DNA of 64,000 nucleotides from a bacterium (GCA_035549195.1 DASZRK010000080.1:36376-100375); one strand, 5' to 3'; counted from the first letter of the stretch, positions 21,200 through 46,673 are shown. Program-made: numbers and translations. The notes: generated by a model from the letters alone, not told the origin.

Positions 21200-22841
21200 G
21201 ACCCAATCCGATGGTATTTTTTTGACCGTTTTTCCCCCTGTTGGAAAAGGGGTCAAGGCAACTTTGGACGACCTGAAAAGGGAGATCCAAAAGGTGAACG
21301 TGACCCCGGACAATCCGGCCACACTCTCGGCGATCCTCCAACAAGCTTCAGGAAAACCCCAAAAGATCGCGGAGATCAAGAAGGTACCAGGTCAGGAGAA
21401 TGTCTTCGTTGAGATCAGCGACGATGAAATGCAAGCCAAACTTACGGTTGTCCCGCCCCAGAGCGAAAAGGATCATTTCACCAACATCGATGACGTCCGA
21501 GGCGCACTCCAGCGTAGGGGGGTGGTCTATGGGCTTGACGAGAACAAAATGGCCGAGCTGTCCGCCAAGTTAAGCCAGTTCGAGGGCGCCAAGAATATCA
21601 ATGAGCCGATCGAGATGGATATCGCGCTTGGCACCCCTGTTACCAATGGGGAGGACGCCCGGCTCGAGATACTTTATTCGCAGACGCCCCAGGAGGCGAC
21701 GCCCGCCGCACCCGAAGAGACGGAAGACGGGCGGGTCGATTATCGTGCCGCCCACAAGATCGACAATACCGCCAAAGGAACCTTGCTCGCCCGCAAAATC
21801 CCACCGACCAAAGGGCTGACGGGCATGACGGTCACTGGCAAGACCCTTCCGGCCATCGATGGCAAGGATGTGGATGTGACCATGGGAAAAGGGGTGGTGG
21901 TCAATCCCGAGAACAAGGATGAATGGATCGCTGATAATGATGGACAGGTCATCATCAAGGACAACAAGATCTCGGTCCTGGCCATTTATGAAGTTCCGGG
22001 CGATGTCAACCTTTCGACCGGGAACATCGACTTTGTGGGGACGGTGACCGTTCGGGGCGATGTGAAGGACGGGTTCAAGGTCTTTGCAGGCGAAGATCTG
22101 ATCGTCAATGGCGTGGTTGAGGGAGCGGAATTGAAATGCAATGGGAAATTATCGATCGCCGGAGGGGTCAGCGGCAACGATAAGGCCAAAATCGTTTGCG
22201 GTGGCGACGCTAATATTAAATACATCCGTAATGCCATCGTGGAGGTGGCTGGAAGTTTGACATCGAGCCAAGCGATCATGCACAGCAAGGTAACGGTGGG
22301 TAAGAAGGTCAATGTATCCGGCCAAAAGGGCGTTATTGTGGGCGGCCAGGTCATCGCAGGTGAACATGTCCATGCCGCCTCGATAGGCTCGAATTTTGCA
22401 ACACCCACGGAGATCGTCGTGGGCGAGGCGGTGGGACTTCGGGACGAGCTTCAAAAAATGGACATCGAATTGAAGGCGTCGCTGGAAAACCTGGACAAAA
22501 CAAAGAAGGGAATCCAATTCCTTAAGGATCTTCAGACCAAAATGGGGGGGAACCTTCCTCCTGAAAAAAAGGAACTACTGACAAAATTGACGCGGGCTCA
22601 ATTCAAGTTGATGGCGGACAGCAAGAGTATGGCCGAGAAGAAGCAGGAATTGGAGCGGAAGGACCAGGAAGGCGCCGAAGATAGGAGGCGCCATGCGAAG
22701 GTCACTTGCATGGGTGTCATCCACACGGGCGTCAAGATCACCGTCAACAAAGCCAGCCGCCAGATCTCGGAAGAATTGAAATATTGCACATTGACCGAGT
22801 CCGGTGGTGAGGTCAAGGTCGGTCCATTCAAAGGGAATTGA
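21159..22841 (+). CDS. FapA-like (DUF342) flagellar-assembly-associated protein with beta-helix repeats
   Basis: N-terminal GYLTIKTQSDGIFLTVFPP (FapA N-domain pattern). Central repeats GNIDFVGTVTVRGDVKDGFKVFAGEDLIVNGVVEGAELKCNGKLSIAGGV are typical DUF342 beta-helix. C-terminal coiled coil. Start overlaps fliA by 41 nt. Confidence 0.7.
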   Translation: MPTAKDANGYLTIKTQSDGIFLTVFPPVGKGVKATLDDLKREIQKVNVTPDNPATLSAILQQASGKPQKIAEIKKVPGQENVFVEISDDEMQAKLTVVPPQSEKDHFTNIDDVRGALQRRGVVYGLDENKMAELSAKLSQFEGAKNINEPIEMDIALGTPVTNGEDARLEILYSQTPQEATPAAPEETEDGRVDYRAAHKIDNTAKGTLLARKIPPTKGLTGMTVTGKTLPAIDGKDVDVTMGKGVVVNPENKDEWIADNDGQVIIKDNKISVLAIYEVPGDVNLSTGNIDFVGTVTVRGDVKDGFKVFAGEDLIVNGVVEGAELKCNGKLSIAGGVSGNDKAKIVCGGDANIKYIRNAIVEVAGSLTSSQAIMHSKVTVGKKVNVSGQKGVIVGGQVIAGEHVHAASIGSNFATPTEIVVGEAVGLRDELQKMDIELKASLENLDKTKKGIQFLKDLQTKMGGNLPPEKKELLTKLTRAQFKLMADSKSMAEKKQELERKDQEGAEDRRRHAKVTCMGVIHTGVKITVNKASRQISEELKYCTLTESGGEVKVGPFKGN

Positions 22842-22848
22842 GGCGAGA

Positions 22849-23496
22849 ATGGAAATCTTTTCCGTCCTTCAAATCGTGTTCGATGCAGTCCTCCTCTTTG
22901 GACTTCTTTTTGTCTTCCATTATTCGGTCAATCAATCCCAAAAGAAAGGCGAGGAGGCCCAGATCGTCAAAGACCTTCAGGTGGATGAGATCCGTGGGAA
23001 TCTTCAGGAACTCTTAATGACCCTCAAACAACTTGGGAAAGAGGTCTCGGAGAATCTCCAGGAGCAGGTTCGGGATGCCGAAGCGAAAACCGAAAAGCTT
23101 AAAAAAATGGTCACAAAATTGGATAAGGACCTCGAGAAAGTCCTGCGGTTGTCCGAGGCGGTCGACCAGGAACGTGACCACTTACAAGAAAAAGAAGCTC
23201 TTCTCAAGGCTTCGAAGAAAAGCAAAGGTTCCCCTCGAACCACACGAGAGGTAGAGGACCTTGCTGTCCGTTCTTTGCCGAATCCTCGCAATCAAACGGT
23301 CGATGCTTCGGAAACGGTCTTGGACGGCTTTTCAGTGGGGGGCGGTTCTTTTTCCCCTAAAGTTCTTAAAGAAGTTTATCGGTTGGCGGACACGAAGAGC
23401 GACCTTTCGGATATTGCTCATAAGACGAAACTGAGCCGGGCCGAAGTCCAATTGATCTTGAATTTGAGGGGGAACCGCTTTTCGACGCCGAATTAG
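22849..23496 (+). CDS. hypothetical membrane-anchored coiled-coil protein with C-terminal HTH-like segment
   Basis: N-terminal TM (IFSVLQIVFDAVLLFGLLFVFHY), long K/E/L-rich coiled coil, C-terminus SDLSDIAHKTKLSRAEVQLILNLR. No confident family. Track ORF starts at 22804; Met at 22849 avoids overlap with the upstream gene. Confidence 0.5.
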   Translation: MEIFSVLQIVFDAVLLFGLLFVFHYSVNQSQKKGEEAQIVKDLQVDEIRGNLQELLMTLKQLGKEVSENLQEQVRDAEAKTEKLKKMVTKLDKDLEKVLRLSEAVDQERDHLQEKEALLKASKKSKGSPRTTREVEDLAVRSLPNPRNQTVDASETVLDGFSVGGGSFSPKVLKEVYRLADTKSDLSDIAHKTKLSRAEVQLILNLRGNRFSTPN

Positions 23497-23519: not shown

Positions 23520-24131
23520 ATGGATCAAGGGGAATCTTTCGCAAGGATTGTGAAGCTTTCGGGACCCCTTCCGACAAGTCGGGGTCTGGAGCCGGTGGTC
23601 CAATGGGGGAGGGTCCTTGCGGTGGTTGGGCCGGGACGTTATTTGATATCCGGGGCTTCGGGAGTTAGGGTGAGTGCGGTTGGGGAGACGGGTTTGAAGG
23701 TGGGTGATCCTGTCAGGGTCTTGCCGTCCCCTTCAGCGACTCAAGCTGTGGACCCGTTATCGGAACCTGGACAACCCTGGACCGCATTCATCCCGCTTGG
23801 CTTTGGAGGGGCAAAGGCTGCCGCGAGATTGAAAGTTTATGTTGAGAAACAACGATTGTCGGTGAAGTCTGGGTCGGCGGTTTACCTGGTGCTGGAGTGC
23901 GAAACGGAACTCCAAAGGATGACGCAGTGGAGCCTTTATTTGAGGGGCCGATCGGTGGCTATCCAGGTCTTTCCCGGCGAAGGGGTGGAACCGAGCGATT
24001 CGCTCCTTGGATCGATCTCTGAAGTGGAGGAGAACCTGAAAAAAAAGGGCTTTTTCTTGACCAGTCCAACGGTGATCTTGAAAAGGAAGTTCTCTGTTCC
24101 GCGTGGGTTTCATTTGAACGTCAGGGGATAA
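23520..24131 (+). CDS. hypothetical protein (203 aa) immediately upstream of orphan FlhB-C gene
   Basis: Continuous ORF, GTG/ATG start region, no recognisable motif. Gene position resembles the FliK-like partner gene found upstream of orphan FlhB-C homologs in Firmicutes (recalled, not verified). Confidence 0.45.
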   Translation: MDQGESFARIVKLSGPLPTSRGLEPVVQWGRVLAVVGPGRYLISGASGVRVSAVGETGLKVGDPVRVLPSPSATQAVDPLSEPGQPWTAFIPLGFGGAKAAARLKVYVEKQRLSVKSGSAVYLVLECETELQRMTQWSLYLRGRSVAIQVFPGEGVEPSDSLLGSISEVEENLKKKGFFLTSPTVILKRKFSVPRGFHLNVRG

Positions 24132-24134
24132 AGA

Positions 24135-24434
24135 ATGAGCCCGGAGGCGCGTCCAAGACGCAAGCCGGCTCGAAAGACGGCGGTCGCACTTCAATATGAT
24201 AGGGCCAAGGGTGGCGCGCCGAAGGTGGTGGCCAAGGGTAGCGGGTTGATCGCCGAACGGTTGATCCAAATGGCAAAGGATCATCGGATCCCGATCCGGG
24301 AAGACAAATTGCTTGTGGAGGCGCTGGAACAATTGAACGTGAACCAAGAAATTCCTCCCGAACTTTATCAGGTGGTGGCGGAGATCCTGGTTTCGGTCTA
24401 TCGGGCCGAAAATAATTTGAAGCAGTCAAAATAA
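24135..24434 (+). CDS. orphan FlhB C-terminal-domain homolog (EscU/YscU/HrcU-family switch-domain protein, YlqH-like), lacking the NPTH autocleavage motif
   Basis: TAVALQYDRAKGGAPKVVAKGSGLIAERLIQMAKDHRIPIREDKLLVEAL parallels the in-window FlhB VAVALQYKDGMQAPMVLAKGERVIAERIKEMARKHGVPIVENPPLARAIL. 99 aa. Confidence 0.8.
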   Translation: MSPEARPRRKPARKTAVALQYDRAKGGAPKVVAKGSGLIAERLIQMAKDHRIPIREDKLLVEALEQLNVNQEIPPELYQVVAEILVSVYRAENNLKQSK

Positions 24435-24466: not shown

Positions 24467-26557
24467 GTGCCAAAAATTACCAAGGGAAGCAAAGGTCTTG
24501 GGGCGGTTTTAGGGGTTTTGGCCTTATGGTTCATCGCCTTGCCTTCGAATGGCTGGTCCCAAAACACGGAGCTGATCTTCGGCCAGAAAAATTCCTTCGG
24601 GATCGGTCCGCGAGCGATCGGCATGGGTGGTGCTTTCGTTGCGGTGGCTGATGATTCATCGGCCGCCTATTGGAACGTGGCCGGATTGGCTCAGTTGAGC
24701 TCTTACGAGATAACCCTATCGAGCGCTCCGGTCTACTTCACGGACCAAGTGAATGGAAAGCAGGCTTTTGGATTCCCTTGGTACGCTTCGATGCAGTTGA
24801 TGATCCCGGTGGCCAAGGAAAACACCCTTGGCATCTCCCTTTTTCGCCCGTTCCATCCCCAATACGACTTTTACTCAGGAAATGCGACCCTATCCACGAG
24901 CCAAAGGTCTGAGGGGAGTTATCTTCTCAACCCAACCTTCCAAGAAAGCGACATTGTTCTTTCTTATGCGGCACGCTTTTCGGCGGTACGTAATTTCTCG
25001 GTCGGTGTGAACATCAAACGATTGACCAATGACCCCTATTATATCCGCTACTTTGGTTCGGATTCCCAGACGGTCACCGTCCTTTCCGATCCCGTTCGCG
25101 TCATCGGTTTCGGTGTGGATATAGGGCTGCTCTATCGGATACCGATCACGAAATATTCCGAGGAATTTCGGATCGGGTTGGCTTTGAACGATCTTGTCAG
25201 CCGTGCTCAATTTTCAAATGGATTGGTCATCAATCATCCGCCGGTGAGCTTCAATGTTGGGCCTGGTTTTGAAACACAGATCCCACCGGTGATCGCTTTG
25301 GGGATAGCCTACAAGAACAATTTCATATTCAAGATCAGGAACATAACGGCTTTTGATTTTGATCAGATCTCAGATCCCCGATTCGATGACGCACACAATA
25401 AATACATCCATTTCGGTACGGAATTTTGGTTCTTCAAGGATGTTTTGGGGGTACGGGCGGGGTACTCATCCCCCTTGAGCCGTCCTGGGGATATCAGTTT
25501 GGGTGGAAGTATCAGGGCCTTGAATGGAGATTTCCAATTGGATGCCGCGTATCTTCAGCCTGTGGGCCCGACGTTCGACATCAATGGCGGCCTGACCCAG
25601 AGCAATGCATCCGGGATCAACTATGAGCCTTTTTATATTGGCGCTACCTACCGCTTTGGCGGTGGGGAAGAGATCCCGCCTCCGAAGGTAAAGGCTTTTG
25701 TCCGCCCGGCCACATTCACTCCTTCGCAAGGTGAAAAGGCGACTTTCTACCTTGATACGACGGAAGATGTCACTGTCAATCGCTGGAGTGTCCTGATCTA
25801 TGATTCGAACAACCACTTGGTCCGAGGTTTGAGAGGGAGCGGTTCTCCGCCCACCCAACTGATCTGGGGTGGCGAGAACGATCATTACGAACCTTTATCT
25901 CCCGGGGTCTATACGTGGTCGTTCCAAGTGGAGGATCAGTTGGAGCATATCGGATCGACCCCGGTGCAAACGGTGGAGATCCTGGGCCCCTCCGAGGCCG
26001 GACCGGCCAGGGATCCCACGAAGCTTTATCAAATCCGTCAACAGCAGGCGGCTCTTTTGGCACAAGAAAGACAGCAACTGACCGACCTTGCCACTAGAAG
26101 CCTGCGGGATCTTCTGGGGCTTGTAGAAGCTACTCCGACAACGGCTAATGCCCAAGCAACCCAAGCATCGACCCCATTGGCGGGGAGCTATCCCGCTATG
26201 GGTTTGGAAGGTGTCAAGGCCTTGACACCCGGGGAGGGGCTCAATAGCCACCGTGAAATAGATCCGAATGGAAATAGCGTTCTAGTGGTTAGCTATAAAT
26301 CCAAGCTAAATGACGCCAACTACGTCATGCAGGAAGCGGCGGATGTCATGAAAAATGATGTGAAAACCACCGGAACTAAGGATTTTAAAACGATGTTAGT
26401 TAATGTATATTATGGGGCCCAGGGAAATGTCCTAAGCATGAAGGCCAATACAGAGGCGATCGCCAATTTTGAAGGTGGTCGGATTGATTTAGCGCGGTTG
26501 AAACAGCTGTCCGATATTTCGATCAATGGGATAAAGGTGGGACCGAATGGCCAATAG
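24467..26557 (+). CDS. outer-membrane beta-barrel protein of FadL/PorV-like superfamily fused to FlgD-Ig-like beta-sandwich and unknown C-terminal domain (paralog 1 of 4)
   Basis: Signal peptide. N-terminal hatch motif GPRAIGMGGAFVAVADDSSAAYWNVAGLA (compare FadL [26 protein letters not shown]). Alternating amphipathic strands to ...FYIGATYRF. Then KATFYLDTTEDVTVNRWSVLIYDSNNHLVRGL...GVYTWSFQVED resembles the FlgD Ig-like domain. ~200 aa extra C-terminus. Confidence 0.6.
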   Translation: MPKITKGSKGLGAVLGVLALWFIALPSNGWSQNTELIFGQKNSFGIGPRAIGMGGAFVAVADDSSAAYWNVAGLAQLSSYEITLSSAPVYFTDQVNGKQAFGFPWYASMQLMIPVAKENTLGISLFRPFHPQYDFYSGNATLSTSQRSEGSYLLNPTFQESDIVLSYAARFSAVRNFSVGVNIKRLTNDPYYIRYFGSDSQTVTVLSDPVRVIGFGVDIGLLYRIPITKYSEEFRIGLALNDLVSRAQFSNGLVINHPPVSFNVGPGFETQIPPVIALGIAYKNNFIFKIRNITAFDFDQISDPRFDDAHNKYIHFGTEFWFFKDVLGVRAGYSSPLSRPGDISLGGSIRALNGDFQLDAAYLQPVGPTFDINGGLTQSNASGINYEPFYIGATYRFGGGEEIPPPKVKAFVRPATFTPSQGEKATFYLDTTEDVTVNRWSVLIYDSNNHLVRGLRGSGSPPTQLIWGGENDHYEPLSPGVYTWSFQVEDQLEHIGSTPVQTVEILGPSEAGPARDPTKLYQIRQQQAALLAQERQQLTDLATRSLRDLLGLVEATPTTANAQATQASTPLAGSYPAMGLEGVKALTPGEGLNSHREIDPNGNSVLVVSYKSKLNDANYVMQEAADVMKNDVKTTGTKDFKTMLVNVYYGAQGNVLSMKANTEAIANFEGGRIDLARLKQLSDISINGIKVGPNGQ

Positions 26558-28100
26558 GCTTTTAACCCTTTACTTTTTGGTCGTTTTTGCCGTTTATTTG
26601 CCTGTTTTTGCGGCCTTTGACAAGGGTGGAGTTTCAGGGATCGGCGCCCGCCCGTTGGGTATGGGCGGGGCGTTTAGTACGATCGCCGATTCAGGCGACG
26701 CTGTTTTTTACAATCCGGCGGGGTTGGTCCAGGTCCTGAGGCCGGAAATCTCCGGTATGGGATCGGTCCTTTTGAACGGTAAAGAGGACCTTTTTGAATT
26801 GGCCTATGTCCAGCCATTCGGGGACCAGATGGCGTGGGCCCTTTCTACGCAACAGTTGTTCTTTACGGACGGCTCGGAGAACGAGCGTTTATACATCGGG
26901 ACTTTTGCGGCCCCCTTGGCAGTGGATAAGTCGATCTCCTTTGGCATCAATATCAAACTGTATGGTGTGGATTCCGCTACCCAGCCTGGTCAACAAGCCA
27001 GCGGGTTGGGGTTGGATATGGGGTTTTTATACCACTTGCCGATATTGGACCCCCGTTATGGCAAGCAGTTCAATATCGGTCTTTCGGCGGAGGATCTGGA
27101 CACCAAGATCCGCTATCAAGCCGGAAATGAGGACCCCATTCCTTTGCGGGTGAGGGGCGGGATCAGTTACGAATTTACCGATGACCTAGTCTGTGCTTTT
27201 GAATTCTCCGATTTTAACGACCCGAACCTTGCCAATCACAACACGCTTCTTCTTGCTGGGATCGAAGGGTGGTTCTTCGAGGATCAATTGGGCTTGAGAA
27301 CGGGTTACACCGGTTTTCAAACGCTTGATGGGCAATTTACCGCAGGAATCAGTTATCGATCCAAGACCTGGGGCATCGATTACGCCTATATTGGTCATGC
27401 GCAGTTTTTGGGTTCCTCCCACCGTATTTCAGCCAAGTGGATGTTCGGCGATTCCTTCCTGGGCAAGGTGAAAAGCTTTATTCCGGAAGGCGTCAATGCC
27501 GTAGTGGAAGGGGACATCATTTCCTTGCGTTGGACGAATTCACCATCCCTTTCTTTGGCCGGATACAATGTTTATTTCAGCAAAACATCGGGTGGCGGAT
27601 ACATCAAGATCAACCAGAAGCCGATAAAAGGTAATTACTATTCCTTGCATGGACTGGAAAAGAACACTAATTATTATTTCGTCGTGACTTCTGTCACCAA
27701 TACGGTGCCCCCTACGGAAAGCCAATATTCCATGGAAGTGGTGGCTGGAACGACTTCTGCCCCTGTGGCGCCGGCAGTGGTCCAAAGTGAGGTGCAGAAC
27801 GAAGGAGTCATCGATATCGCCAAGCAAGAGGGTATGTCGGGATGGGGTGATCCAGGTAAGAGTGGTCTCAAAGGCTACAATGTCTACATTTCCGAGGTTT
27901 CGGGAGGTCGCTTTGACAAGGTCAATGCGCAGCCTTTGGGCAATGTCCCGACCTACTTGGTCCGAAAGTTGAAAGTCGGACAACGTTACTACTTTACGTT
28001 CACGTCCGTTTCTGCGGATGGTGTTGAGAGCGCGCATTCGAAAGAGGTTTCAGCGGTTGCTTTACCCTATAACACGGTCGTTCAACCGGCCGGTAAATAA
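26547..28100 (+). CDS. outer-membrane beta-barrel protein of FadL/PorV-like superfamily fused to two fibronectin-III-like domains (paralog 2 of 4)
   Basis: Signal peptide. Hatch motif GARPLGMGGAFSTIADSGDAVFYNPAGL. Barrel ends ...SSHRISAKWMF. Then two ~90-aa repeats each with GYNVY(F/I)S..SGG...Y(Y)F(V/T)(V/F)TSV (FN3-like). Start overlaps paralog 1 by 11 nt. Confidence 0.6.
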   Translation: MANRLLTLYFLVVFAVYLPVFAAFDKGGVSGIGARPLGMGGAFSTIADSGDAVFYNPAGLVQVLRPEISGMGSVLLNGKEDLFELAYVQPFGDQMAWALSTQQLFFTDGSENERLYIGTFAAPLAVDKSISFGINIKLYGVDSATQPGQQASGLGLDMGFLYHLPILDPRYGKQFNIGLSAEDLDTKIRYQAGNEDPIPLRVRGGISYEFTDDLVCAFEFSDFNDPNLANHNTLLLAGIEGWFFEDQLGLRTGYTGFQTLDGQFTAGISYRSKTWGIDYAYIGHAQFLGSSHRISAKWMFGDSFLGKVKSFIPEGVNAVVEGDIISLRWTNSPSLSLAGYNVYFSKTSGGGYIKINQKPIKGNYYSLHGLEKNTNYYFVVTSVTNTVPPTESQYSMEVVAGTTSAPVAPAVVQSEVQNEGVIDIAKQEGMSGWGDPGKSGLKGYNVYISEVSGGRFDKVNAQPLGNVPTYLVRKLKVGQRYYFTFTSVSADGVESAHSKEVSAVALPYNTVVQPAGK

Positions 28101-28109
28101 GGAGTCGCG

Positions 28110-28895
28110 ATGCCCAGTGGTCTTTATATCGCAGCGTCGGGGATGGACTCGACCTTGCTTCGCCAAAATGTGATCGCGAACAATTTGGCGAATGTCGATA
28201 CGGTCGGGTTTAAACAAGATCGGACCGCCGACCTCGCCTTCCCGACCTACTTGATCGCCAGGATCCATGATCAAAAAATGTCGGTCCTGGATGGGACCGC
28301 CGAGGTTCGCCCTGCCCTGGGATTTGCTGGGGGAGGCGTGGTACCTCAAGAAGTGGCGATCGATCATTCCCAAGGTGCTCATTTAGAAACAAAAGCTCCC
28401 TTGGATTTTGCTTTGAATGGACAAGGATTTTTTTCGGTTCTCGATCCTTCCGGGAAAACCCTTCTGACAAGGGATGGGAGTTTTAACCTGGATGGGAATC
28501 AAAGACTGGTCACCAAAGATGGGTTGCCCGTGCTGGGACACAATGGGGAAATATACATCGATGGGAACCAAGTAACGGTCGATGAAGAGGGGAACATTAG
28601 CGTTGACGGAAAAGGATTGGATCAGCTCTTGGTGGTCAAGGTCCAGGACCCGGGAGGTCTTAAGAAGATAGGCCATTCGCTTTTTGAGGTCCGGCCGGGG
28701 AATAAAATTGATATGGCCCCGGACAACATCCAGGTCCAGCAAGGTTTTTTGGAACAATCCAACGTCAATGCGATAAGCGAAATGGTCAATATGATCGACA
28801 CTTATCGATCTTACGAACTTAATTCGAAGATCATTTCTACCTACGATCATTTGATGAATCAAGCCGCGACGCAGATAGGAAGTTTGAGGGTCTGA
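28110..28895 (+). CDS. flgF: flagellar proximal rod protein FlgF
   Basis: LYIAASGMDSTLLRQNVIANNLANVDTVGFKQDR and C-terminal SNVNAISEMVNMIDTYRSYELNSKIIST. Precedes flgG. Confidence 0.85.
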   Translation: MPSGLYIAASGMDSTLLRQNVIANNLANVDTVGFKQDRTADLAFPTYLIARIHDQKMSVLDGTAEVRPALGFAGGGVVPQEVAIDHSQGAHLETKAPLDFALNGQGFFSVLDPSGKTLLTRDGSFNLDGNQRLVTKDGLPVLGHNGEIYIDGNQVTVDEEGNISVDGKGLDQLLVVKVQDPGGLKKIGHSLFEVRPGNKIDMAPDNIQVQQGFLEQSNVNAISEMVNMIDTYRSYELNSKIISTYDHLMNQAATQIGSLRV

Positions 28896-29007
28896 AGATA
28901 GTTAGTTGTTAAACGGCCGGACTGCATTGCAGGGGCCGTTCTATCGCCGAACGATCGAGGCGATGGAAAGGGCGGGTCTTTTGTCCCGCCGACTCTAAGG
29001 AGGCTTT

Positions 29008-29802
29008 ATGCAGTCACTTTACACGGCGGCCACCGGTATGGCCGCCCAGCAGCTGAACATTGATACGATTTCCAATAATCTGGCCAATGTCAGCACCAGC
29101 GGATTCAAAAAGCAGCGGGTCGAGTTCCAAGACCTGCTTTACCTGAACCTAAAACCTTCAGGGGCCCCGACTTCCCCCGAAACGAACACTCCCGTAGGAC
29201 TTCAAGTGGGCGAGGGCGTAAAACCTGTGGCGACCCAGAGGATCTTCACCGAGGGAGCCATTCAAAATACCAACAACCCATTGGACATCCTGATCGAAGG
29301 CGATGACAGTTTCTTCCAAGTGACATTGCCGAACGGTGAAACGGCCTATACTCGCGATGGGTCCTTCAAGCGTGATGGGAATGGAAACGTGGTCACGTCC
29401 GATGGTTACTATCTGGATCCATCGATCCAGATCCCTGCGGACGCTTCCCAAGTTCAGATAACTCCGACCGGACAGATCCTCGTCCAAATAGCCGGTTCAT
29501 CCCAACAAACCCAAATCGGACAATTGGAATTGACAAGATTCGTGAATCCGGCTGGATTGGAAGCCAAGGGACATAATCTTTTCATGGCGACGGCCGCCTC
29601 CGGGGATCCGATCCAAGGTACGCCTGGGTCGGTCAGTTTCCCCACGGTCCAACAGGGATCTCTGGAATCGTCGAATGTGGATGTGGTCACGGAAATGGTG
29701 AACCTTATTGTGGCCCAACGCGCCTATGAAATGAACTCAAAGGCGGTTTCCACCTCGGACGACATGATGATGATCCTGGCGAACATGAAGCAATTTCCTT
29801 GA
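29008..29802 (+). CDS. flgG: flagellar distal rod protein FlgG
   Basis: MQSLYTAATGMAAQQLNIDTISNNLANVSTSGFKKQRVEFQDL and SNVDVVTEMVNLIVAQRAYEMNSKAVSTSDDMM are canonical FlgG. Confidence 0.93.
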   Translation: MQSLYTAATGMAAQQLNIDTISNNLANVSTSGFKKQRVEFQDLLYLNLKPSGAPTSPETNTPVGLQVGEGVKPVATQRIFTEGAIQNTNNPLDILIEGDDSFFQVTLPNGETAYTRDGSFKRDGNGNVVTSDGYYLDPSIQIPADASQVQITPTGQILVQIAGSSQQTQIGQLELTRFVNPAGLEAKGHNLFMATAASGDPIQGTPGSVSFPTVQQGSLESSNVDVVTEMVNLIVAQRAYEMNSKAVSTSDDMMMILANMKQFP

Positions 29803-29815
29803 TAACGCTTGAGCC

Positions 29816-30778
29816 ATGAAGGTCTTTGGGATTTGGACCATGATCGGGGTGAGTTGCCTGGCCTCTCTGGGGCATGCCGAAGTGATCCTGCGATTGTTGG
29901 ATAGAGCGACGGTTGTGGGGCCTCGGATAAGGCTTGGGGACATCGCCGAGGTTACGAGCGCCAAGGGAAAGCCAAACGCAGTTTTATCCAACTTGGATGT
30001 GGGAAGGGCGGCTCCGCCCGGGAAAACGGCAGTGTTCACCCGGTCGGGGCTAATCCTTTCCCTCCGGCGGGAAGATCTTTTTCAACCGGGAATGAAGTTC
30101 GGGGGGGCAGATAGGTGTTTGGTCCTGACCCAGAGCCAAAAACTCGAACCCGAAGGTCTTTTGCCAGACATACAAAACTTCGTCCAAAAACAGACCGGGG
30201 AGGACCCTGGGTTTTTGGCGGTGGGGTTCGAAGGGTCCCCTAAATCATTGGTTCTGCCGGCCGGAGATGTCACCGTTAGATTGAAACCGAACGTGTCCGG
30301 CCGCTATGAAGGGATAATGACCCTTCAAGCGGATTTGAGTGTTGATGGACGCTTTATCCGCACAACAACGTTCCGTATCCGTGTGGATCGGTTTCGGCCG
30401 GTGGTAAAGACGACACGGGCGGTTGAAAAGGGAGAAAAGTTCACATCGAAAAACGTCGCTTTGGCGCGGTTCCCGGGCAATTTCAGTTTGAAAGGCGGGT
30501 TTACCGACCTAAAACAAGTGTTGGGGCGGTTTTCGTCCTCGGCCTTGGCACCTGAAACAATGCTGCGGGTAACCGATCTCTATGATCCGCCGGTCATCGT
30601 TCATGGACGGGTGGTGGAGGCCGTGGTCCGGAAGGGAAATGTCGAGATCTCCGTTCAGGTAAGGGCCATCGAGGATGGGAAGATGGGGGATGTGATCCGA
30701 GTTGAGAATACTGATTCCCATAAAATACTGAAGGGTAAGGTGTTGGACGAGAAGAAAGTGTTAGTAGAGGGGTCTTGA
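29816..30778 (+). CDS. flgA: flagellar P-ring assembly chaperone FlgA (long form, 320 aa)
   Basis: Signal peptide. SAF/FlgA-like C-terminal domain (VVIVHGRVVEAVVRKGNVEISVQVRAIEDGKMGDVIRVENTDSHKILKGKVLDEKKV). Located directly upstream of flgH/flgI. Confidence 0.7.
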   Translation: MKVFGIWTMIGVSCLASLGHAEVILRLLDRATVVGPRIRLGDIAEVTSAKGKPNAVLSNLDVGRAAPPGKTAVFTRSGLILSLRREDLFQPGMKFGGADRCLVLTQSQKLEPEGLLPDIQNFVQKQTGEDPGFLAVGFEGSPKSLVLPAGDVTVRLKPNVSGRYEGIMTLQADLSVDGRFIRTTTFRIRVDRFRPVVKTTRAVEKGEKFTSKNVALARFPGNFSLKGGFTDLKQVLGRFSSSALAPETMLRVTDLYDPPVIVHGRVVEAVVRKGNVEISVQVRAIEDGKMGDVIRVENTDSHKILKGKVLDEKKVLVEGS

Positions 30779-30790
30779 CCCCGGGAGGTT

Positions 30791-31414
30791 TTGGAGATGA
30801 TGCGTTTTTTAAGATTTTTGACGTTGTTTCTTCTTTTTTTATCCGTGATTTCTAGGTCTTTGGCCGACTCCCTTTATCCGGCCGAGGGAACTAATTCCAT
30901 TTACAATGAAAAACGTGCTAGACGGGTGGGGGATGTCATTACGGTGCTTATCAATGAGAGCACAAATGCCACTCAGGCGGCTAGCAGCCAGAATCAAAAA
31001 GCTTCAAGCTTGGCGTTGGGAGCGGGATCCGGTTTCCTTGGCGCGGGGGTTTACGGGACCAACATTTTGAACACCAATAGCCAGGTGGGTGTGGGAGCAA
31101 GCGCGGCCCATCAGGGGCAAGGAACTTCCAGCCGAAGCACTACGGTGACCGGACAAATGACCGCTAAGATCATTTCGGTCCTCCCGAGCGGTAATTATCA
31201 GATCGAAGGAAGCCGTTATGTGGAAGTCAACGAGGAAAAACAAACCGTTGAAGTGACCGGGGAAATCCGTCCGGACGATATCTCTAGTGATAACACGGTC
31301 TCTTCGTTGCGGATCGCCAATGCCAAGATCAAGTTAACGGGAACCGGGCCGGCGTCAGAAACGGCCAAGCCAGGACTTTTGACAAGGGTCCTGGGTTGGC
31401 TGGGCCTTTTCTAG
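30791..31414 (+). CDS. flgH: flagellar L-ring lipoprotein FlgH
   Basis: Lipoprotein-like signal, SLYPAEGTNSIYNEKRARRVGDVITVLINESTNATQAASS and LTVTGQMTAKIISVLPSGNYQIEGSRYVEVNEEKQTVEVTGEIRPDDIS match the FlgH family. Confidence 0.88.
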   Translation: MEMMRFLRFLTLFLLFLSVISRSLADSLYPAEGTNSIYNEKRARRVGDVITVLINESTNATQAASSQNQKASSLALGAGSGFLGAGVYGTNILNTNSQVGVGASAAHQGQGTSSRSTTVTGQMTAKIISVLPSGNYQIEGSRYVEVNEEKQTVEVTGEIRPDDISSDNTVSSLRIANAKIKLTGTGPASETAKPGLLTRVLGWLGLF

Positions 31415-31437
31415 CCACTTTCAAAGTAGGAGTGACC

Positions 31438-32541
31438 ATGCTTGGGAGAATCGTTTGTTCGCTGGTGATCCTAATGACCTTCAACCCGCTTTGGGCGGCT
31501 CAGGTCCGGTTGAAGACCATTGCGCAGGTCAAAGGTGTCCGTGAGAACCAATTGATCGGTTATGGATTGGTCGTTGGTTTGCAACGGACCGGTGACACGC
31601 AAAGGGTCAAGTCGACGCTACAAAGCATAACCAATATGCTTTCTCAATTCGGGATCGTGATCAAACCGGCCGATATCCGGACACAGAATGTTGCGGCGGT
31701 CATGGTCACGGCCCAATTACCACCCTTGTTGAAATCGGGTGATAAGATCGATGTGACCGTTTCCTCTGTCGGGGATGCCCGTAGTCTGCAAGGCGGGACT
31801 CTTTTGATGACGCCATTACAGGGTCCGGACGGGCAAGTCTATGCCGTGGCCCAAGGTCCGTTGGCGGTCGGTGGTTTTTCCGATAATACGGGTGAATTTC
31901 CGTTGGTGCAGGTCAACCACACGACAGCTGGAAGGGTGCCGAATGGTGCCTTGGTCGAGCGTGAAGTGCCTTCCACCTTTGTGGATAACGATACGGTCAC
32001 CATTTTGCTGGACCATCCGGATTTTGGACAAGCTTCTTTGGTGACCCAGGCCATCAACCAGCAGTTCGGTGAGCCGGTCGCGAAAGCGGTCGATGGAGGC
32101 CAGGTGGATGTGAAGATCCCTTATAACTACCGAGACGATGTCGTGGCTTTTTTGGCCGCGGTCCAGGATGTCTCGGTGGCGACGGATTCACCCGCCAATC
32201 GCGTGGTCGTGAATGAAAAAACTGGGACCGTAGTCCTTGGGCAGGACGTTCGCATCGATGCGGTCGCTATCGCCCATGGAAATCTTCGCTTGGTGATCAA
32301 AAAGACAACCCAAATCACTCACGATGCCGTTTTTGGACACGATGAACTGACCCACACCACGACGGTTTCCTCCGATGACCTTGGGAAGAAAGGGAACTTG
32401 GTGGTCCTGCCGGAAGGCGCCACTTTGATGGATGTCGTCGAAGCGGTCAACGCAGTCGGCGCCACACCACGAGACCTTATTTCGATCCTTCAGGCTGTCA
32501 AGGCGGAAGGCGCCCTGCACGCCGAGTTGGAGATACTTTAG
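31438..32541 (+). CDS. flgI: flagellar P-ring protein FlgI
   Basis: Signal peptide MLGRIVCSLVILMTFNPLWAA, then RLKTIAQVKGVRENQLIGYGLVVGLQRTGD (FlgI N-terminal signature). AGGAG RBS 6 nt upstream of ATG 31438. Track ORF begins at 31396 overlapping flgH. Confidence 0.9.
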   Translation: MLGRIVCSLVILMTFNPLWAAQVRLKTIAQVKGVRENQLIGYGLVVGLQRTGDTQRVKSTLQSITNMLSQFGIVIKPADIRTQNVAAVMVTAQLPPLLKSGDKIDVTVSSVGDARSLQGGTLLMTPLQGPDGQVYAVAQGPLAVGGFSDNTGEFPLVQVNHTTAGRVPNGALVEREVPSTFVDNDTVTILLDHPDFGQASLVTQAINQQFGEPVAKAVDGGQVDVKIPYNYRDDVVAFLAAVQDVSVATDSPANRVVVNEKTGTVVLGQDVRIDAVAIAHGNLRLVIKKTTQITHDAVFGHDELTHTTTVSSDDLGKKGNLVVLPEGATLMDVVEAVNAVGATPRDLISILQAVKAEGALHAELEIL

Positions 32542-32549
32542 GAGTCGTT

Positions 32550-33023
32550 TTGCCACCGATCCCAGCTTCCATTATGCCTGTGTTTCCTTCGGGGACCTTT
32601 CAGGTTTCCGACTTGGCTTCCTTTGGGAAATTTGGGAAGGCCTTTGCCCTCAACCCCGGAATGGCCTCCAACGCGGTCAATCAGGTCATGATGGGACAGT
32701 CGGGACTGAATTACCTGACCTTGGCGCAAGGTCCACAGGGTCTGAATCCCCTGAAGGGGCCGGTATCCCACTCAGATGCCGAGATCAAGCAGGTCGCCAA
32801 GAACTTCGAATCCATATTTCTTGAGATGATGATGAAAGAAATGCGTAATTCGGTCCAGAAATCGGGGCTCATGGGAAATTCCAGGGGCATGGAGTTTTTT
32901 GAAGGTATGTACGACGAACAGTTAAGCCGCCAATTGTCCGCCGGTGGGGGTATTGGCTTGGGCCAAATGGTCTATGAAAAATTGAAAATGGCGACCGTTC
33001 CTCATCAAAAAATCTTTTCATGA
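32550..33023 (+). CDS. flgJ: FlgJ-like rod-binding protein (rod-binding domain only, no muramidase domain)
   Basis: AKNFESIFLEMMMKEMRNSVQ...FEGMYDEQLSRQLSAGGGIGLGQMVYEKL matches the FlgJ N-terminal rod-binding domain. 157 aa with no glucosaminidase/peptidase part. Confidence 0.7.
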   Translation: MPPIPASIMPVFPSGTFQVSDLASFGKFGKAFALNPGMASNAVNQVMMGQSGLNYLTLAQGPQGLNPLKGPVSHSDAEIKQVAKNFESIFLEMMMKEMRNSVQKSGLMGNSRGMEFFEGMYDEQLSRQLSAGGGIGLGQMVYEKLKMATVPHQKIFS

Positions 33024-33439
33024 AACTGGCCAATTGTTCCCGTTGTGGGCTGGTCTTTGCCTTCGTTCCGGGAACACGTGATATTTGTCCCACCTGTATT
33101 CGTCGGGAAGATGAGGATTATCTGAAAATTTTCCATTATTTAACGGAGCGGCCAAGTGCCTCTGCACCTGAGATCGCCGACGCCACCGGTGTGGATATAA
33201 AGGAAATACTCCGCTTTGTTAGGGAAAATCGTCTTCGATTGGTCAAAACTGGCGTTGATCTCCAATGTGAAAGTTGCGGGGCATCAGTTACCCAAGGAAA
33301 ACTATGTGATTCTTGCGTAAGAAAGTTGACAACTGAAATGAAGGATGAAGTTGGAAAAAGCCCTAAAATGACCCCAAAAGACCCGCCAAAAGACCTCACC
33401 CGCGATCCTAAATACCTGAAGGACCGTAGGGGCCGTTAA
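33020..33439 (+). CDS. YvyF-like flagellar-operon zinc-ribbon protein (TIGR03826-like family, as in Bacillus yvyF-flgM operon)
   Basis: MKLANCSRCGLVFAFVPGTRDICPTCIRREDEDYLKIFHYL...CESCG...CDSC. Four CxxC pairs and an N-terminus very similar to recalled Bacillus YvyF. Located directly upstream of flgM. Confidence 0.65.
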   Translation: MKLANCSRCGLVFAFVPGTRDICPTCIRREDEDYLKIFHYLTERPSASAPEIADATGVDIKEILRFVRENRLRLVKTGVDLQCESCGASVTQGKLCDSCVRKLTTEMKDEVGKSPKMTPKDPPKDLTRDPKYLKDRRGR

Positions 33440-36593: not shown

Positions 36594-39500
36594 TTGAAGC
36601 GGATCGAAGACCTTCTCAATTCATTGCTGACCAAGCCCCAAGACAAGACCGGGATTTCTACGGGCTCGCCCGCGAAAGGGGCCGGGGAACAGAGCGCCAC
36701 CTTCGGTCAGGTCCTTGCCCAGATCACCCAAGGTCAGAATGCCGTCGGGAACCAGGGGTTGAACGCCCCTACGGGATCCTCCCAGAACTCCCCGGCGGCT
36801 CTTAGCGGCCCACACACGAATTTGGTCCCCGGGGTCGTTGCCGATTCGTTCCAAGGATCGGTCTCCCAGGTCTCGATAACGGTCACCGAGACCCTTCGGA
36901 ACGCCACCCGGGATCAGGTTCGACAAGCTGAGCAAACCCTTCAGAACCTCATGACGGGTCTTTTGACCCTTCTGCAAGGGCTTTCCGCCTCTGGGGCCTC
37001 GAAAGGGATCAGCCAAGAGCAGGCCCAAGCCCTAAACGCGAGCTTGGAGTTGACCCCTGCGGACCTTCAATCGATCTCGAACCTTCTACAACCTTTCACT
37101 CAAAAGCTTCCGGAAGATCAAAATCCGTTTTCATTGGATAGGGACCAACAGGCAAGGCTCCTAGCCCAAATGGTCCAACAAATGCTGAGTGCCCAACAGG
37201 TTCTTTTTGGGACGCCGGGGCGGGGGAATGGTGATCAGGCACAGTTTTCTTCCATACAGGGCATTGGTCAAACGGCAAGGGTCACTGGATCTACCACTAT
37301 CCTTCGATTGAGCTTTTCCGATCTCCAAGTGAACGCGTTCCAAAACCAAGAGGGCCAATCGAGCCGGATCTCCATCGATATGGAAAGCTTCAAAATGTCC
37401 GCGACCTTCATCCAGGCCGAGTCGAAGGGCCGACCGCTGGTTTTGCCCCAAGGCATGACCGCCTTGAACGACTCGAACATTTCGGAGGATCTGACCCAAA
37501 AACTCCAGCAAGCTCTTGCCGCCGTCCAAGATCAGCAGGGTCCAATGCCTTCGAATCAGTCGAATTCTTTCAACCAGGTTCTGAAGCCCGAAACATTGGC
37601 CAATTTCAAAGAATTGGTCCAATTGCTCATGCAATCCGGGGTGACCCGGGCCGCTCTGACCTCCTTCATGAACCGGAATCAGGAAAACGCGAACCAGAAC
37701 CCGAATAATCCCTCGGCGCCCTTGGGCGAAAGGGGCCAGGTCTTGGCCCCGAAAACGCCCAGCGAAATTCTTTTGTTGCCGGTTGAAGGGGCTCCGAATG
37801 TTTCCTCCACGCCTACTTTCGAGGTCTCGCGGAATTTGGCTTCCCAATTGAATCAAATTTCGTCCCAGCTGACGGAAGGGAACGTGGCTGTCGTTCCGGC
37901 CTCGAACGGAGACCTGAGCCCGCAGACTTCGTTGCGGTCGGAAACGACCGTTCAAAGTTCCTCGGCTTCTCAAGGGGAAGTTCCCCCGACAACCGCGTTT
38001 GGCCCCGTAGGCGTTCTTTCGTCTGCCCTCGAACCGAACCCTGAAATGGTGGGCCCGATTCATCCTTCGGCCCAAAGCGTGGGGAACGCGCCATTCATGA
38101 GACCGGCGGGGAACGTTCAAACCCACCAAGAGATCCAAGACAAGGTCATCCAAAACGATAATGTTTCTAAACTGAACACGGCTTCACTCCACGCAACGCA
38201 AGGGAGTTTGACCTTTGGGGACCTTCATCCTTTTTCCAGCCAGGTCTATACTCTGAACCAAGTGACAGGATCACAAGCTGCGACACAATTGAACAGCCCG
38301 ATCCCGGCCGTTTTGAGTGGGAGTCCCTCGGTGCCCCAAAACACTCCTGAGGTTCCTCCGGTCGAGGTGGCCTTGAGAACGCAGACCATCAAAGCTGAAG
38401 TTACGGCTGCTTTGGATCTAGGACGATCGACGTCCCGGAGTGCGAATGGGAATACCCCAGCACTCCAGGTTGGAGGAGAGATTTCTCGATCTTCGACCCA
38501 ATCGGTCTTGCCGATCGAGGTTCTTAACAATCCTACTCTGCCCGAGCCAACAGCTACCAATACTGGGCTGAATGAGACAAAAATTCCTGCGGTTGCGGCA
38601 TCCGATTTGTCGCCCAATTCGATAAGTATTCCCACGAGCGCATCCCAGGCGGATCTGTTTAAGGGGAACCTCCAGACCACCGTTCCGAACGACCATGGAG
38701 TCACCGATACTTCCCGTCCGGGGACATTGCCCCATACAGTGCCGGCCCCAGCCTTGATCCCAGCTCCGGGACCTGCGTACCAGGGCCAAGTGGCGCAATC
38801 CCAAGGGATGATACCTCCAGTGCCGACCTCCACCACGCCCCTGGTCCCGTTCACGGCCACAGCTGGCGAGGGCCTAAAGGCGGAACTACAACCGCAGATG
38901 TTGCAAGGAACCTTGAACGCGGGACGAACGGTCCCGGTGGGGTCCTTCCAACCTGATCAAACCATCAAAGTTCAAGCCCCGGAAGGCGTGACACCGATCG
39001 TTTCTGTTACAGGAACCGACTCCTCTAATCAGGTTTTGTCGGCAACCGATAAGAGTGATCCAAAAGATACAACTTCTTTGGATATCGCCACCCTTCTTGC
39101 CTCGACCGGATCAGGGGTCTCCCGACCTGAAGATTCTTTGAAATTCGCCCAAAATATGAATAATTTGTCCAATAACCCAAGGTTTTCCATGGACCAGAAC
39201 CAGATCTATGACTTGGTTTCGGCCCAATTGACCACCCAACTAGTTCAGGCACGGAATGTCTCCCGCCTTAACTTTCAGCTTGTCCCAGAATCCCTAGGCA
39301 AGGTGACCGTCCAAATAGCGCTGGTGGATCAGTCCCTTTCGGCGAGGATCTTTGTTTCCAACCCCGAGGTCCGGGAAGCCGTCCAGAACCATTTGGTCGA
39401 TCTCCGGGCCAGCCTCAGCCAAGCGGGCCTCCAGATCGATCAACTGCAAGTCCAAGTCCAGGGGGGCGGGGCCAATCTTTTGGGCCAGTATTACCAATAT

Positions 39501-39635
39501 CAGCAGGAAGGATCGTCCTATCGAAGCCCCATTTATGAGGCCGCGGTGGGGCAGGGGGGGCCTGAAAACCTTGAAAATACAGGGGTTTTGGCTTCTTCGG
39601 GCCGTTCCTTAACCCTGGTCGATCTTTTGGCTTAA
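36594..39635 (+). CDS. fliK: flagellar hook-length control protein FliK, giant form (1013 aa)
   Basis: C-terminal Flg_hook domain LNFQLVPESLGKVTVQIALVDQSLSARIFVSNPEVREAVQNHLVDLRASLSQAGLQIDQLQVQVQGG. Rest is Q/S/T/P-rich low-complexity ruler sequence. TTG start. Confidence 0.75.
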   Translation: MKRIEDLLNSLLTKPQDKTGISTGSPAKGAGEQSATFGQVLAQITQGQNAVGNQGLNAPTGSSQNSPAALSGPHTNLVPGVVADSFQGSVSQVSITVTETLRNATRDQVRQAEQTLQNLMTGLLTLLQGLSASGASKGISQEQAQALNASLELTPADLQSISNLLQPFTQKLPEDQNPFSLDRDQQARLLAQMVQQMLSAQQVLFGTPGRGNGDQAQFSSIQGIGQTARVTGSTTILRLSFSDLQVNAFQNQEGQSSRISIDMESFKMSATFIQAESKGRPLVLPQGMTALNDSNISEDLTQKLQQALAAVQDQQGPMPSNQSNSFNQVLKPETLANFKELVQLLMQSGVTRAALTSFMNRNQENANQNPNNPSAPLGERGQVLAPKTPSEILLLPVEGAPNVSSTPTFEVSRNLASQLNQISSQLTEGNVAVVPASNGDLSPQTSLRSETTVQSSSASQGEVPPTTAFGPVGVLSSALEPNPEMVGPIHPSAQSVGNAPFMRPAGNVQTHQEIQDKVIQNDNVSKLNTASLHATQGSLTFGDLHPFSSQVYTLNQVTGSQAATQLNSPIPAVLSGSPSVPQNTPEVPPVEVALRTQTIKAEVTAALDLGRSTSRSANGNTPALQVGGEISRSSTQSVLPIEVLNNPTLPEPTATNTGLNETKIPAVAASDLSPNSISIPTSASQADLFKGNLQTTVPNDHGVTDTSRPGTLPHTVPAPALIPAPGPAYQGQVAQSQGMIPPVPTSTTPLVPFTATAGEGLKAELQPQMLQGTLNAGRTVPVGSFQPDQTIKVQAPEGVTPIVSVTGTDSSNQVLSATDKSDPKDTTSLDIATLLASTGSGVSRPEDSLKFAQNMNNLSNNPRFSMDQNQIYDLVSAQLTTQLVQARNVSRLNFQLVPESLGKVTVQIALVDQSLSARIFVSNPEVREAVQNHLVDLRASLSQAGLQIDQLQVQVQGGGANLLGQYYQYQQEGSSYRSPIYEAAVGQGGPENLENTGVLASSGRSLTLVDLLA

Positions 39636-42671: not shown

Positions 42672-42715
42672 GGTTAAGTGAGGAAAAAGGTCCGTAAATG
42701 GGCCGGTCGAATGAA

Positions 42716-42746
42716 CGGCGCCCGATAAGGGCGCCGTTTTTATTTT
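42716..42746 (+). terminator. Rho-independent terminator after flgE
   Basis: 8-bp GC stem CGGCGCCC/GGGCGCCG with 5-nt loop GATAA, followed by TTTTTATTTT. Confidence 0.7.
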
Positions 42747-42784
42747 GGGAACGGATTGAATGTGAGATAAGCTTTAATAGAACC

Positions 42785-46662: not shown

Positions 46663-46673
46663 AGGCCATCTTC

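Follow-up and report, generated by a model that had tools for sequence, protein, structure and literature searches.

Paired PorV/FadL-fold outer-membrane barrels with predicted periplasmic arms are encoded beside the flagellar rod and ring genes of candidate division FCPU426

A barrel pair linked to the flagellar ring genes

In a 64,000-nucleotide stretch of bacterial DNA (GCA_035549195.1 DASZRK010000080.1:36376-100375; hereafter, the window), two consecutive genes, B1 and B2, encode what are very probably PorV-fold barrels that bear periplasmic arms and are genetically coupled to the flagellar ring operon. Our reading of their role, to which we assign a probability of roughly 0.5, is that both proteins are structural parts of the flagellar motor and would serve as a scaffold or anchor embedded in the outer membrane at the L-ring. 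The source lineage of the window is candidate division FCPU426: the closest genomes were metagenome-assembled genomes (MAGs) carrying this label, to which NCBI gives the rank of phylum. The exact sequence of the window's B1 had no record in public assemblies, and proteins of this kind are publicly annotated as 'hypothetical' or 'PorV/PorQ family protein'.

The window contains a single long plus-strand flagellar cluster that runs from fliF (~2.3 kb) to flgE (~42.7 kb). The order before the pair includes flhA, flhF, flhG, fliA (20372), fapA (21159), two conserved unknowns, and a stand-alone gene for the FlhB C-terminal domain (FlhB-C), followed by B1 and B2. After B2 come flgF, flgG, flgA, flgH, flgI, a rod-binding (FlgJ-like) gene, flgM, flgN, flgK, fliK, flgD, and flgE. 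The pair and its immediate neighbours are as follows.

24135–24434, plus strand: stand-alone FlhB C-terminal-domain gene (Pfam Bac_export_2, profile positions 261–335 of 335, E 1.2e-21)
24467–26557, plus strand: B1, 696-aa PorV/FadL-fold barrel with a C-terminal extension (open reading frame, ORF)
26547–28100, plus strand: B2, 517-aa PorV/FadL-fold barrel with two fibronectin type III (FN3) domains (ORF; PorV_fam, profile, AlphaFold2 (AF2) model, and Foldseek)
28110–32541, plus strand: flgF, flgG, flgA, flgH, and flgI, for the distal rod, P-ring chaperone, L-ring, and P-ring (ORFs; Pfam matches of orthologous genes in relatives; synteny)

A 32-nt gap separates the FlhB-C gene from B1, the B1 and B2 genes overlap by 11 nt (26547–26557), and B2 is followed by flgF after a gap of 9 nt. 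An earlier note on this DNA had described an orphan FlhB-C gene upstream of the pair, with 10-nt overlaps joining FlhB-C, the pair, and flgF; the orphan gene was confirmed by its Bac_export_2 match and the tight operon placement stood, whereas an overlap was found only between B1 and B2. No promoter-like or terminator-like signal above chance was detected between FlhB-C, B1, B2, and flgF in a scan of 19.5–33.5 kb. The same B1/B2/flgF spacing pattern recurs in relatives, where B2 and flgF are 9–15 nt apart. To judge from the sequence, B1 and B2 arose by tandem duplication, are coupled in translation, and are co-transcribed with the genes for the distal rod (FlgF/G), the P-ring chaperone FlgA, the L-ring FlgH, and the P-ring FlgI.

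Conserved linkage in relatives

Synteny was surveyed by tblastn with the window's flagellar proteins. In the window's own clade (loci L001–L018), the order B1, B2, FlgF, FlgG, FlgA was present in every locus whose contig reaches flgF (15 loci; B1 49–72% identical), with FlgH and FlgI next wherever the contig runs further, and gene calls with Pfam annotation confirmed the order at loci with 59% and 49% identity. The FlhB-C gene is kept as the upstream neighbour of B1 in these loci, and an ortholog with 35% identity also retains FlhB-C, B1, and B2 in this order up to the contig end. Beyond this clade, a deep clade (B1 25–30% and B2 36–41% identical) showed the order B1, B2, FlgF, FlgG, FlgA, FlgH, FlgI, FlgJ-like in eight or nine loci (L019–L022, L027, L099, L100, one JGI contig, and L087, which shares its contig with L022).

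FlhB-C is not upstream of B1 in the deep clade. The genes found there encode MutL/MiaA/radical SAM proteins, pyruvate kinase/isocitrate dehydrogenase, or tetratricopeptide repeat (TPR) proteins and lie 200–440 nt away, so that in that clade the rod and ring operon starts with the pair, B1 first, behind unrelated housekeeping genes. A sigma70-like TTGACA...TATGTTAT element precedes B1 in two deep-clade loci, and a regular-expression search for sigma28 and sigma54 promoter motifs upstream of B1 in this clade returned none. Since the flgFGAHI order is kept while the upstream genes differ, the pair appears to be tied to these genes rather than to FlhB-C; within the flagellum, flgF-G-J-A-H-I has been recognised as a 'diderm module' (PMC5007114). 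B2 (38–40% identity) diverges at about the rate of FlgF and FlgH (37–43%) over the same divergence. Linkage in relatives was the test on which the earlier note had staked its flagellar proposal, and it was found in all but one or two loci; the exceptions are taken up below, where the role of the pair is weighed.

Family and fold of the barrels

Both proteins have the 14-stranded barrel plugged by an N-terminal hatch that defines the PorV/PorQ/FadL-fold superfamily. The AF2 models, built from alignments of 69 sequences for B1 and 90 for B2 (pLDDT 78 and 82, respectively), begin in each case with the helix of a signal peptide and a short hatch at the N-terminus, continue with 14 main strands, and end in the appended domains. 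The best fold matches were to PorV, then to FadL/TodX and BamG. PorV was the top Foldseek match of B2 (8.7e-12, TM 0.64) and was also found by the sequence profile of the B2 family (6h3i_F, E 3.8e-5), while the whole-B1 profile had no match among PDB sequences. The two barrels are 28% identical to each other (E 4e-27), which identifies them as tandem paralogs. The membrane part of B1 is divided as follows; in B2, the hatch covers aa 24–66 and the barrel aa 67–299.

24467–24562, plus strand: B1 signal peptide, aa 1–32 (...LPSNGWS/QNT; hydrophobic N-terminal helix 2–28 in the model; the family's most variable region)
24584–24703, plus strand: B1 hatch, aa 40–79, GPRAIGMGGAF.AVADD..AAYWN[VP]AGL (the family's most conserved segment, entropy 0.56)
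24704–25657, plus strand: B1 14-stranded barrel, aa 80–397, ending in a beta-signal-like ...ATYRF (model strand list)

The conserved hatch motif (GMGGAF...NPAG, including the NPA motif of FadL) is present in both proteins, as GPRAIGMGGAFVAVADDSSAAYWNVAGL in B1 and GARPLGMGGAFSTIADSGDAVFYNPAGL in B2. B2 has YNPAGL; the consensus of the B1 family is YWN[PV]AGL, with V rather than P in the B1 of the window. The stretch G52–L74 of B1, with N70, A72, G73, and L74 at its end, is invariant in a 16-sequence alignment (A1) and at least 90% conserved among the 69 sequences. Both barrels close with an internal beta-signal-like strand end, YRF in B1 and WMF in B2.

Family models place the pair at the margin of the described subfamilies. 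The NCBIfam subfamily model PorV_fam (NF033709, curated cut-off 90 bits) aligned over the whole barrel of both proteins, B1 with 83.2 bits and B2 with 82.1 bits falling slightly short of its cut-off, and a distant B1 ortholog (P0213) passed it at 105 bits. The equivalog models were missed by a wide margin: PorV (NF033710, cut-off 250) gave 37 and 27 bits for B1 and B2, respectively, and PorQ (NF033711, cut-off 220) gave 18 bits for B2. Pfam returned only weak TraF_2, UPF0164, and PorV matches on B1. Toluene_X (PF03349, gathering score 29.7 bits) had no match at E≤1 in either protein and was matched weakly, at E≤0.01, by 24 of the 69 B1 homologs (best E 4.1e-7). We therefore place B1 and B2 in the superfamily as divergent members, without counting them as certified members of the PorV/PorQ family. 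The proposal in the earlier note that two consecutive FadL/PorV-type barrel genes lie at 24467–28100 was borne out by the ORFs, hatch motifs, PorV_fam alignments, and 14-strand AF2 models, and the family search that it suggested points to the PorV/FadL type, with B1 and B2 just below the PorV_fam cut-off and two further barrels of the window, B3 and B4 (see below), above it.

Appended domains and predicted topology

Both barrels are followed by long C-terminal extensions, whose parts are listed below.

25658–25981, plus strand: B1 PPP hinge and FlgD-type immunoglobulin (Ig)-like beta-sandwich, aa 398–505, predicted periplasmic (model strands 408–505; FlgD_ig matches)
26015–26113, plus strand: B1 long conserved helix, aa 517–549 (33 residues; the coordinates are those of the helix), followed by a disordered linker, aa 550–589 (AF2 secondary structure, pLDDT, and conservation)
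26243–26539, plus strand: B1 C-terminal alpha/beta domain, aa 593–691, family-specific (sequence searches; AF2 model)
27486–27749, plus strand: B2 FN3 domain 1, aa 314–401 (Pfam fn3; model strands)
27801–28061, plus strand: B2 FN3 domain 2, aa 419–505 (second stretch of Pfam fn3; alignment of the family profile to tandem FN3 structures; model)

The PPP hinge of B1 is invariant in the 16-sequence alignment and nearly so among the 69 sequences. Pfam FlgD_ig (PF13860, gathering score 27 bits) matched the window's B1 below threshold, with E 0.043 for the whole protein and 18.6 bits (E 0.0018) for the domain alone. The same family was matched by 26 of the 69 B1 homologs at E≤0.01, among which the deep-clade ortholog in L087 passes at 30.8 bits, and FlgD equivalog models also matched the Ig region of B1 in distant orthologs. 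In B2, Pfam fn3 (PF00041, gathering score 25 bits) was matched in two stretches at 43.2 bits (E 4.5e-11), and the model shows two beta-sandwiches. These results agree with the domain layout first proposed for the pair: a FlgD-Ig-like domain plus a rest of ~200 aa in paralog 1, now resolved into a sandwich at aa 408–505 with a sub-threshold FlgD_ig match in the window and ~190 aa of helix, linker, and alpha/beta domain, and two FN3-like domains in paralog 2.

The alpha/beta domain of B1 had no match among PDB sequences and gave 25 matches among 1.84 billion representative proteins. In all full-length matches (650–750 aa), the domain is C-terminal, and PorV_fam was matched by each of the five new ones scanned; the remaining matches were fragments and one 1925-aa repeat protein. 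With its matches confined to B1-type proteins, the domain appears to be private to this architecture, and the search for it in other protein contexts, which returned the B1 family only, gave no functional hint.

In FadL-type barrels, 14 strands and a periplasmic hatch place the C-terminus in the periplasm. The even strand count of B1 and B2, together with their N-terminal hatch, would thus put the Ig and FN3 extensions in the periplasm rather than at the cell surface, a prediction that also answers the structure-prediction check that had been suggested for them. In line with this topology, conservation along B1 follows an alternation of long variable loops with short conserved turns: entropy was highest in the long loops predicted to face outward (1.4–1.9) and lower in the strand-turn-strand units, the hinge, and the Ig domain (0.7–1.1), so that conservation of the hinge and Ig domain equals that of the barrel core. 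As modelled, the arm of B1 would in principle be long enough to reach well below the L-ring.

Comparison with known outer-membrane systems

PorV and PorQ of type IX secretion systems (T9SS; PDB 6h3i_F, 8gl6_F; NF033709) share with B1 and B2 the GMGGAF...NPAGL motif and a family hidden Markov model that covers the whole barrel, and are, as proposed for B1 and B2, subunits of larger outer-membrane machines. They differ in being barrel-only, whereas B1 and B2 bear periplasmic extensions of 200–300 aa, and the gene partners of B1 and B2 are flagellar rod and ring genes instead of T9SS genes. BamG, of the β-barrel assembly machinery (BAM) of Bacteroidota (PDB 9n2d_B, 9hj3_F, 9hjm_F), is 12–16% identical and carries other appended domains, and no link of the pair to BAM genes was seen. 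Compared with the FadL/TodX/TbuX channels (PF03349), the window proteins fall under the Pfam threshold and have no catabolic context, and FadL lacks Ig and FN3 modules. Another familiar design is that of OmpA, which consists of an N-terminal barrel, an internal beta-signal, a proline-rich hinge, and a periplasmic C-terminal domain. The layout of B1 and B2 is similar (outer-membrane barrel, hinge, and periplasmic module), but their barrels have 14 strands and a hatch as opposed to the 8 strands of OmpA, and in place of the peptidoglycan-binding OmpA_C domain, for which Pfam gave no match, they carry Ig or FN3 domains and, in B1, a novel alpha/beta domain.

Among flagellar structures, the Vibrio H-ring (FlgO, FlgP, FlgT) and the Campylobacter/Helicobacter basal disk (FlgP/FlgQ) are accessories tied to the outer membrane around the L- and P-rings and encoded with flagellar genes, which is the role proposed here for B1 and B2. 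'Outer-membrane-associated scaffold motors' are a recognised class, and barrels do not appear among the components listed in the current complex-motor classification (PMC11870540). In Vibrio, FlgO, FlgP, and FlgH have an N-terminal lipid anchor, FlgT forms a ring around the LP-rings, and none of them is described as an integral beta-barrel (PMC13521929). Pfam and NCBIfam scans of B1 and B2 gave no match at E≤1 to the FlgO, FlgP/LPP20, FlgT, FlgQ, PflA/PflB, or MotX/MotY families, and literature searches pairing PorV or FadL with flagella found no paper connecting PorV-type barrels to flagella, in agreement with the original suggestion that such barrels belong to no described flagellar accessory set. 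The fold and the concept of outer-membrane motor scaffolds are thus already known; new are the two fixed architectures (barrel with FlgD_ig, helix, and private domain; barrel with two FN3 domains) and their position, kept throughout the phylum, in front of the rod and L/P-ring genes of the operon.

An L-ring protein without a lipobox

For one product of this operon, the leader was compared between the window and its relatives.

30791–31414, plus strand: flgH, signal-peptidase-I-type leader (…SLA/DSLYP) without a lipobox cysteine (N-terminal sequences of the window and 17 loci)

The lipobox cysteine is missing from FlgH of the window and of every relative with a readable N-terminus (among L001–L021 and L027). 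In Salmonella and Vibrio, by comparison, the L-ring is anchored by lipidation of FlgH (PMC13521929). A literature search for the FlgH lipobox returned nothing describing the B1/B2 pair. In this lineage, B1 and B2 may make up for an L-ring protein that has no lipid anchor.

Proposed role and alternatives

If B1 and B2 are structural parts of the motor, their barrels would be located in the outer membrane beside the L-ring, their Ig and FN3 arms would touch the outside of the L- and P-rings, and the longer arm of B1 may extend to the peptidoglycan or the stator region. The two proteins together would form an accessory scaffold or anchor similar in function to Vibrio's lipoprotein H-ring or Campylobacter's basal disk, with the difference that it would be built of integral barrels. 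Such a scaffold fits both the missing lipobox of FlgH and the divergence rate of B2, which is close to those of FlgF and FlgH. Moreover, PorV-fold barrels are already known as structural subunits, namely PorV in the T9SS translocon and BamG in the BAM of Bacteroidota, both recovered as PDB matches. A more specific version, which we put forward only tentatively, holds that B1 and B2 surround the non-lipidated L-ring in fixed stoichiometry as a ring or cage embedded in the outer membrane, which would make them the first motor components of any bacterial flagellum that are integral beta-barrels. A PorV barrel of the T9SS/BAM type would in this case have been recruited with Ig or FN3 arms and a private C-terminal domain, so as to anchor the bushing and perhaps reach the stators.

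Several observations weigh against a structural role in the motor. The putative localisation of the barrels and their putative contact with FlgH and FlgI follow from gene linkage and predicted structure, and the closest characterised relatives, PorV and PorQ, serve protein secretion and surface attachment, not motility. One locus, L098 (GCA_975905565.1), holds a true B1 (hhalign probability of its C-terminal domain, 96.7%) and a true B2 (36% identical) with no flagellar gene within 8 kb. In another, L097 (3–4070), a B2-like barrel (29% identical) comes after a CARDB/DUF11 protein with an end resembling the C-terminal sorting domains (CTDs) of the T9SS; this end matches FlgD_ig at 9.9e-10 and also, though weakly, Por_Secre_tail and CHU_C, which are sorting domains of the T9SS. 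Single B2-like paralogs are also located among housekeeping genes. Taken as a whole, this fold family is not specific to flagella, and the pair itself is linked to them very strongly but with exceptions.

With respect to these loci, the pair in L098 (5888–17518) is followed by genes for five small DUF11/CLIPPER proteins and then a giant adhesin of >1800 aa with DUF11 repeats and a faint FlgD_ig match. The cluster resembles a surface-fibre or adhesin cluster and is the sole locus found in which a full pair does not adjoin flgF. The single B2-like paralogs of FCPU426 (L023, L024/L096, L025, and L028) are ~460 aa long and 34% identical over the barrel and first FN3 domain, and in at least one case such a paralog shares a MAG with the flagellar pair.

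The relationship to PorV suggests an alternative in which B1 and B2 act in PorV/PorQ-like surface attachment or cargo shuttling of CTD-like (FlgD_ig-type) proteins, their operon position reflecting co-regulation or history. PorV is indeed the best match by both fold and sequence, genes for FlgD_ig/CTD-like cargo directly precede PorV-family barrels elsewhere in the window (the gene at 44165, then B3 and B4) and in L097, and in L098 the pair precedes DUF11 surface proteins and the adhesin with its faint FlgD_ig match. We nevertheless consider this alternative unlikely, given that B1 and B2 fall far below the PorV and PorQ equivalog cut-offs, that their conserved periplasmic Ig, FN3, and helix modules have no counterpart in PorV or PorQ, and that no gene for CTD-bearing cargo lies beside B1/B2 in ~30 flagellar loci. 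T9SS core genes were not noticed in those parts of the 64-kb window that were scanned, and the flgFGAHI linkage holds down to 25–30% B1 identity. Also improbable, in our estimate, is a transient role in assembly, whereby B1 and B2 would insert or nucleate the non-lipidated L-ring or remodel the membrane for hook penetration in a BamG-like manner and be gone from the finished motor. The missing lipobox of FlgH and the operon shared with the P-ring chaperone FlgA are in keeping with it. However, elaborate and strongly conserved periplasmic arms suit a stable structural element at least as well, the 11-nt overlap, suggesting stoichiometric co-production of B1 and B2, likewise favours a stable element, and the Pfam scan of B1 and B2 revealed no similarity to known flagellar chaperones.

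That the two proteins are FadL-type channels for hydrophobic substrates, or generic outer-membrane proteins hitch-hiking in a flagellar cluster, seems very unlikely to us. The strong fold matches to FadL and TodX, the Toluene_X matches among B1 homologs, and the retained hatch with its NPA-like motif would be explained, but a constant position 9–15 nt from flgF across two deep clades despite reshuffled upstream genes would not be expected of a hitch-hiker. Furthermore, Ig and FN3 modules and a family-specific C-terminal domain would be useless for substrate diffusion, and no fatty-acid or aromatic catabolic genes are found nearby. An anchor of a membranous flagellar sheath would share with B1 and B2 only the outer-membrane location and the linkage to the L-ring gene; we hold it to be hardly credible, as no sheath-associated feature was seen and the sheath of Vibrio correlates with a long lipidated loop in FlgH (PMC13521929), whereas FlgH is non-lipidated here.

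Flagellar motors differ among lineages mainly in their periplasmic and outer-membrane scaffolds, and the outer-membrane-associated scaffolds compared here (the Vibrio H-ring proteins) are anchored as lipoproteins and not as integral barrels. A conserved barrel pair heading the rod and L/P-ring operon across a candidate phylum would add a new building principle and give the PorV/FadL fold a new use besides shuttling in the T9SS, assisting the BAM, and taking up lipids. For several hundred proteins that currently carry the labels 'hypothetical' or 'PorV/PorQ family', the linkage provides a likely context as well. If the barrels do form a cage around the L-ring, this would be a new way to build an outer-membrane-associated scaffold motor and would connect the PorV/PorQ attachment modules with the flagellum in evolution.

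A second barrel pair and a Thr/Pro-rich protein

Downstream of flgE, the window encodes two more barrels of the same family.

44165–47705, plus strand: secreted Thr/Pro-rich protein ending in a FlgD_ig (CTD-like) domain, then B3 (45676–46662) and B4 (46674–47705) (FlgD_ig, PorV_fam, and PorQ models)

The FlgD_ig match at the C-terminus of the Thr/Pro-rich protein scored 26.7–28.5 bits. As the earlier note had claimed, 45676–47705 encodes two barrel-only paralogs: B3 and B4 passed the PorV_fam cut-off with 116 and 133 bits, respectively, and B3, at 110 bits for the PorQ model, leans towards PorQ. The trio of Thr/Pro-rich protein, B3, and B4 recurs in eight metagenome loci (L088–L095), and the order flgE, Kelch, Thr/Pro-rich, B3, B4, rlmH, dinG is kept where the contig suffices, in relatives at 56–75% identity only. 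The claim that four barrel copies are wired into the flagellar locus therefore stood for B1 and B2 and was overstated for B3 and B4, whose adjacency to flgE is documented only within that identity range. To all appearance, the Thr/Pro-rich/B3/B4 trio looks like a separate PorQ/PorV-plus-cargo module that adjoins the flagellar cluster, with at most a putative functional tie to it. The arrangement of cargo gene followed by barrel gene resembles the PorZ–PorQ and PorU–PorV attachment logic of the T9SS.

BLASTP of the Ig domain of B1 against the C-terminus of the Thr/Pro-rich protein gave just an 18-residue W.G.N...P.S.G.Y match (E 0.009), too weak for the two to be regarded as orthologous beyond their shared FlgD_ig character. 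A secreted protein ending in FlgD_ig followed by one or two barrel-only PorQ/PorV-family proteins is a recurring pattern (the window, L088–L095, and L097), and FlgD_ig may be a tag for sorting or anchoring in this phylum, with PorV-family barrels as its partners. A literature search on FlgD_ig as a T9SS CTD found nothing describing the B1/B2 pair. The hook-cap protein FlgD of the window (39696–40109) is just 137 aa long, comprising the N-terminal and Tudor region without an Ig domain; FlgD_ig-type domains sit on B1 and the Thr/Pro-rich protein instead. In two Elusimicrobiota MAGs (L065 and L082), a PorV-family barrel is encoded ~6 kb from a homolog of MotA (39–40% identical to the window's MotA), which may be a coincidence.

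Other features of the flagellar cluster

Between fapA and the FlhB-C gene lie the two conserved genes without a family (22804–23496 and 23520–24131). One encodes a membrane-anchored coiled-coil protein of 230 aa that weakly resembles SpiroCoCo_C and DUF2802; the other encodes a protein of 203 aa, and the same position in the more distant L005 is occupied by a 337-aa Flg_hook (FliK-like) gene. FliK of the window (36594–39635) is unusually long (1013 aa), with a Flg_hook match confined to the C-terminal ~75 residues. Directly after flgE, a Kelch beta-propeller gene (42698–43831) encodes a protein with an N-terminal hydrophobic segment, and its position is kept in L088 and L091. A small zinc-ribbon-like protein of 139 aa with CxxC pairs is encoded at 33020–33439, between the FlgJ-like gene and flgM, and relatives carry an unannotated gene of 117–147 aa in that same position.

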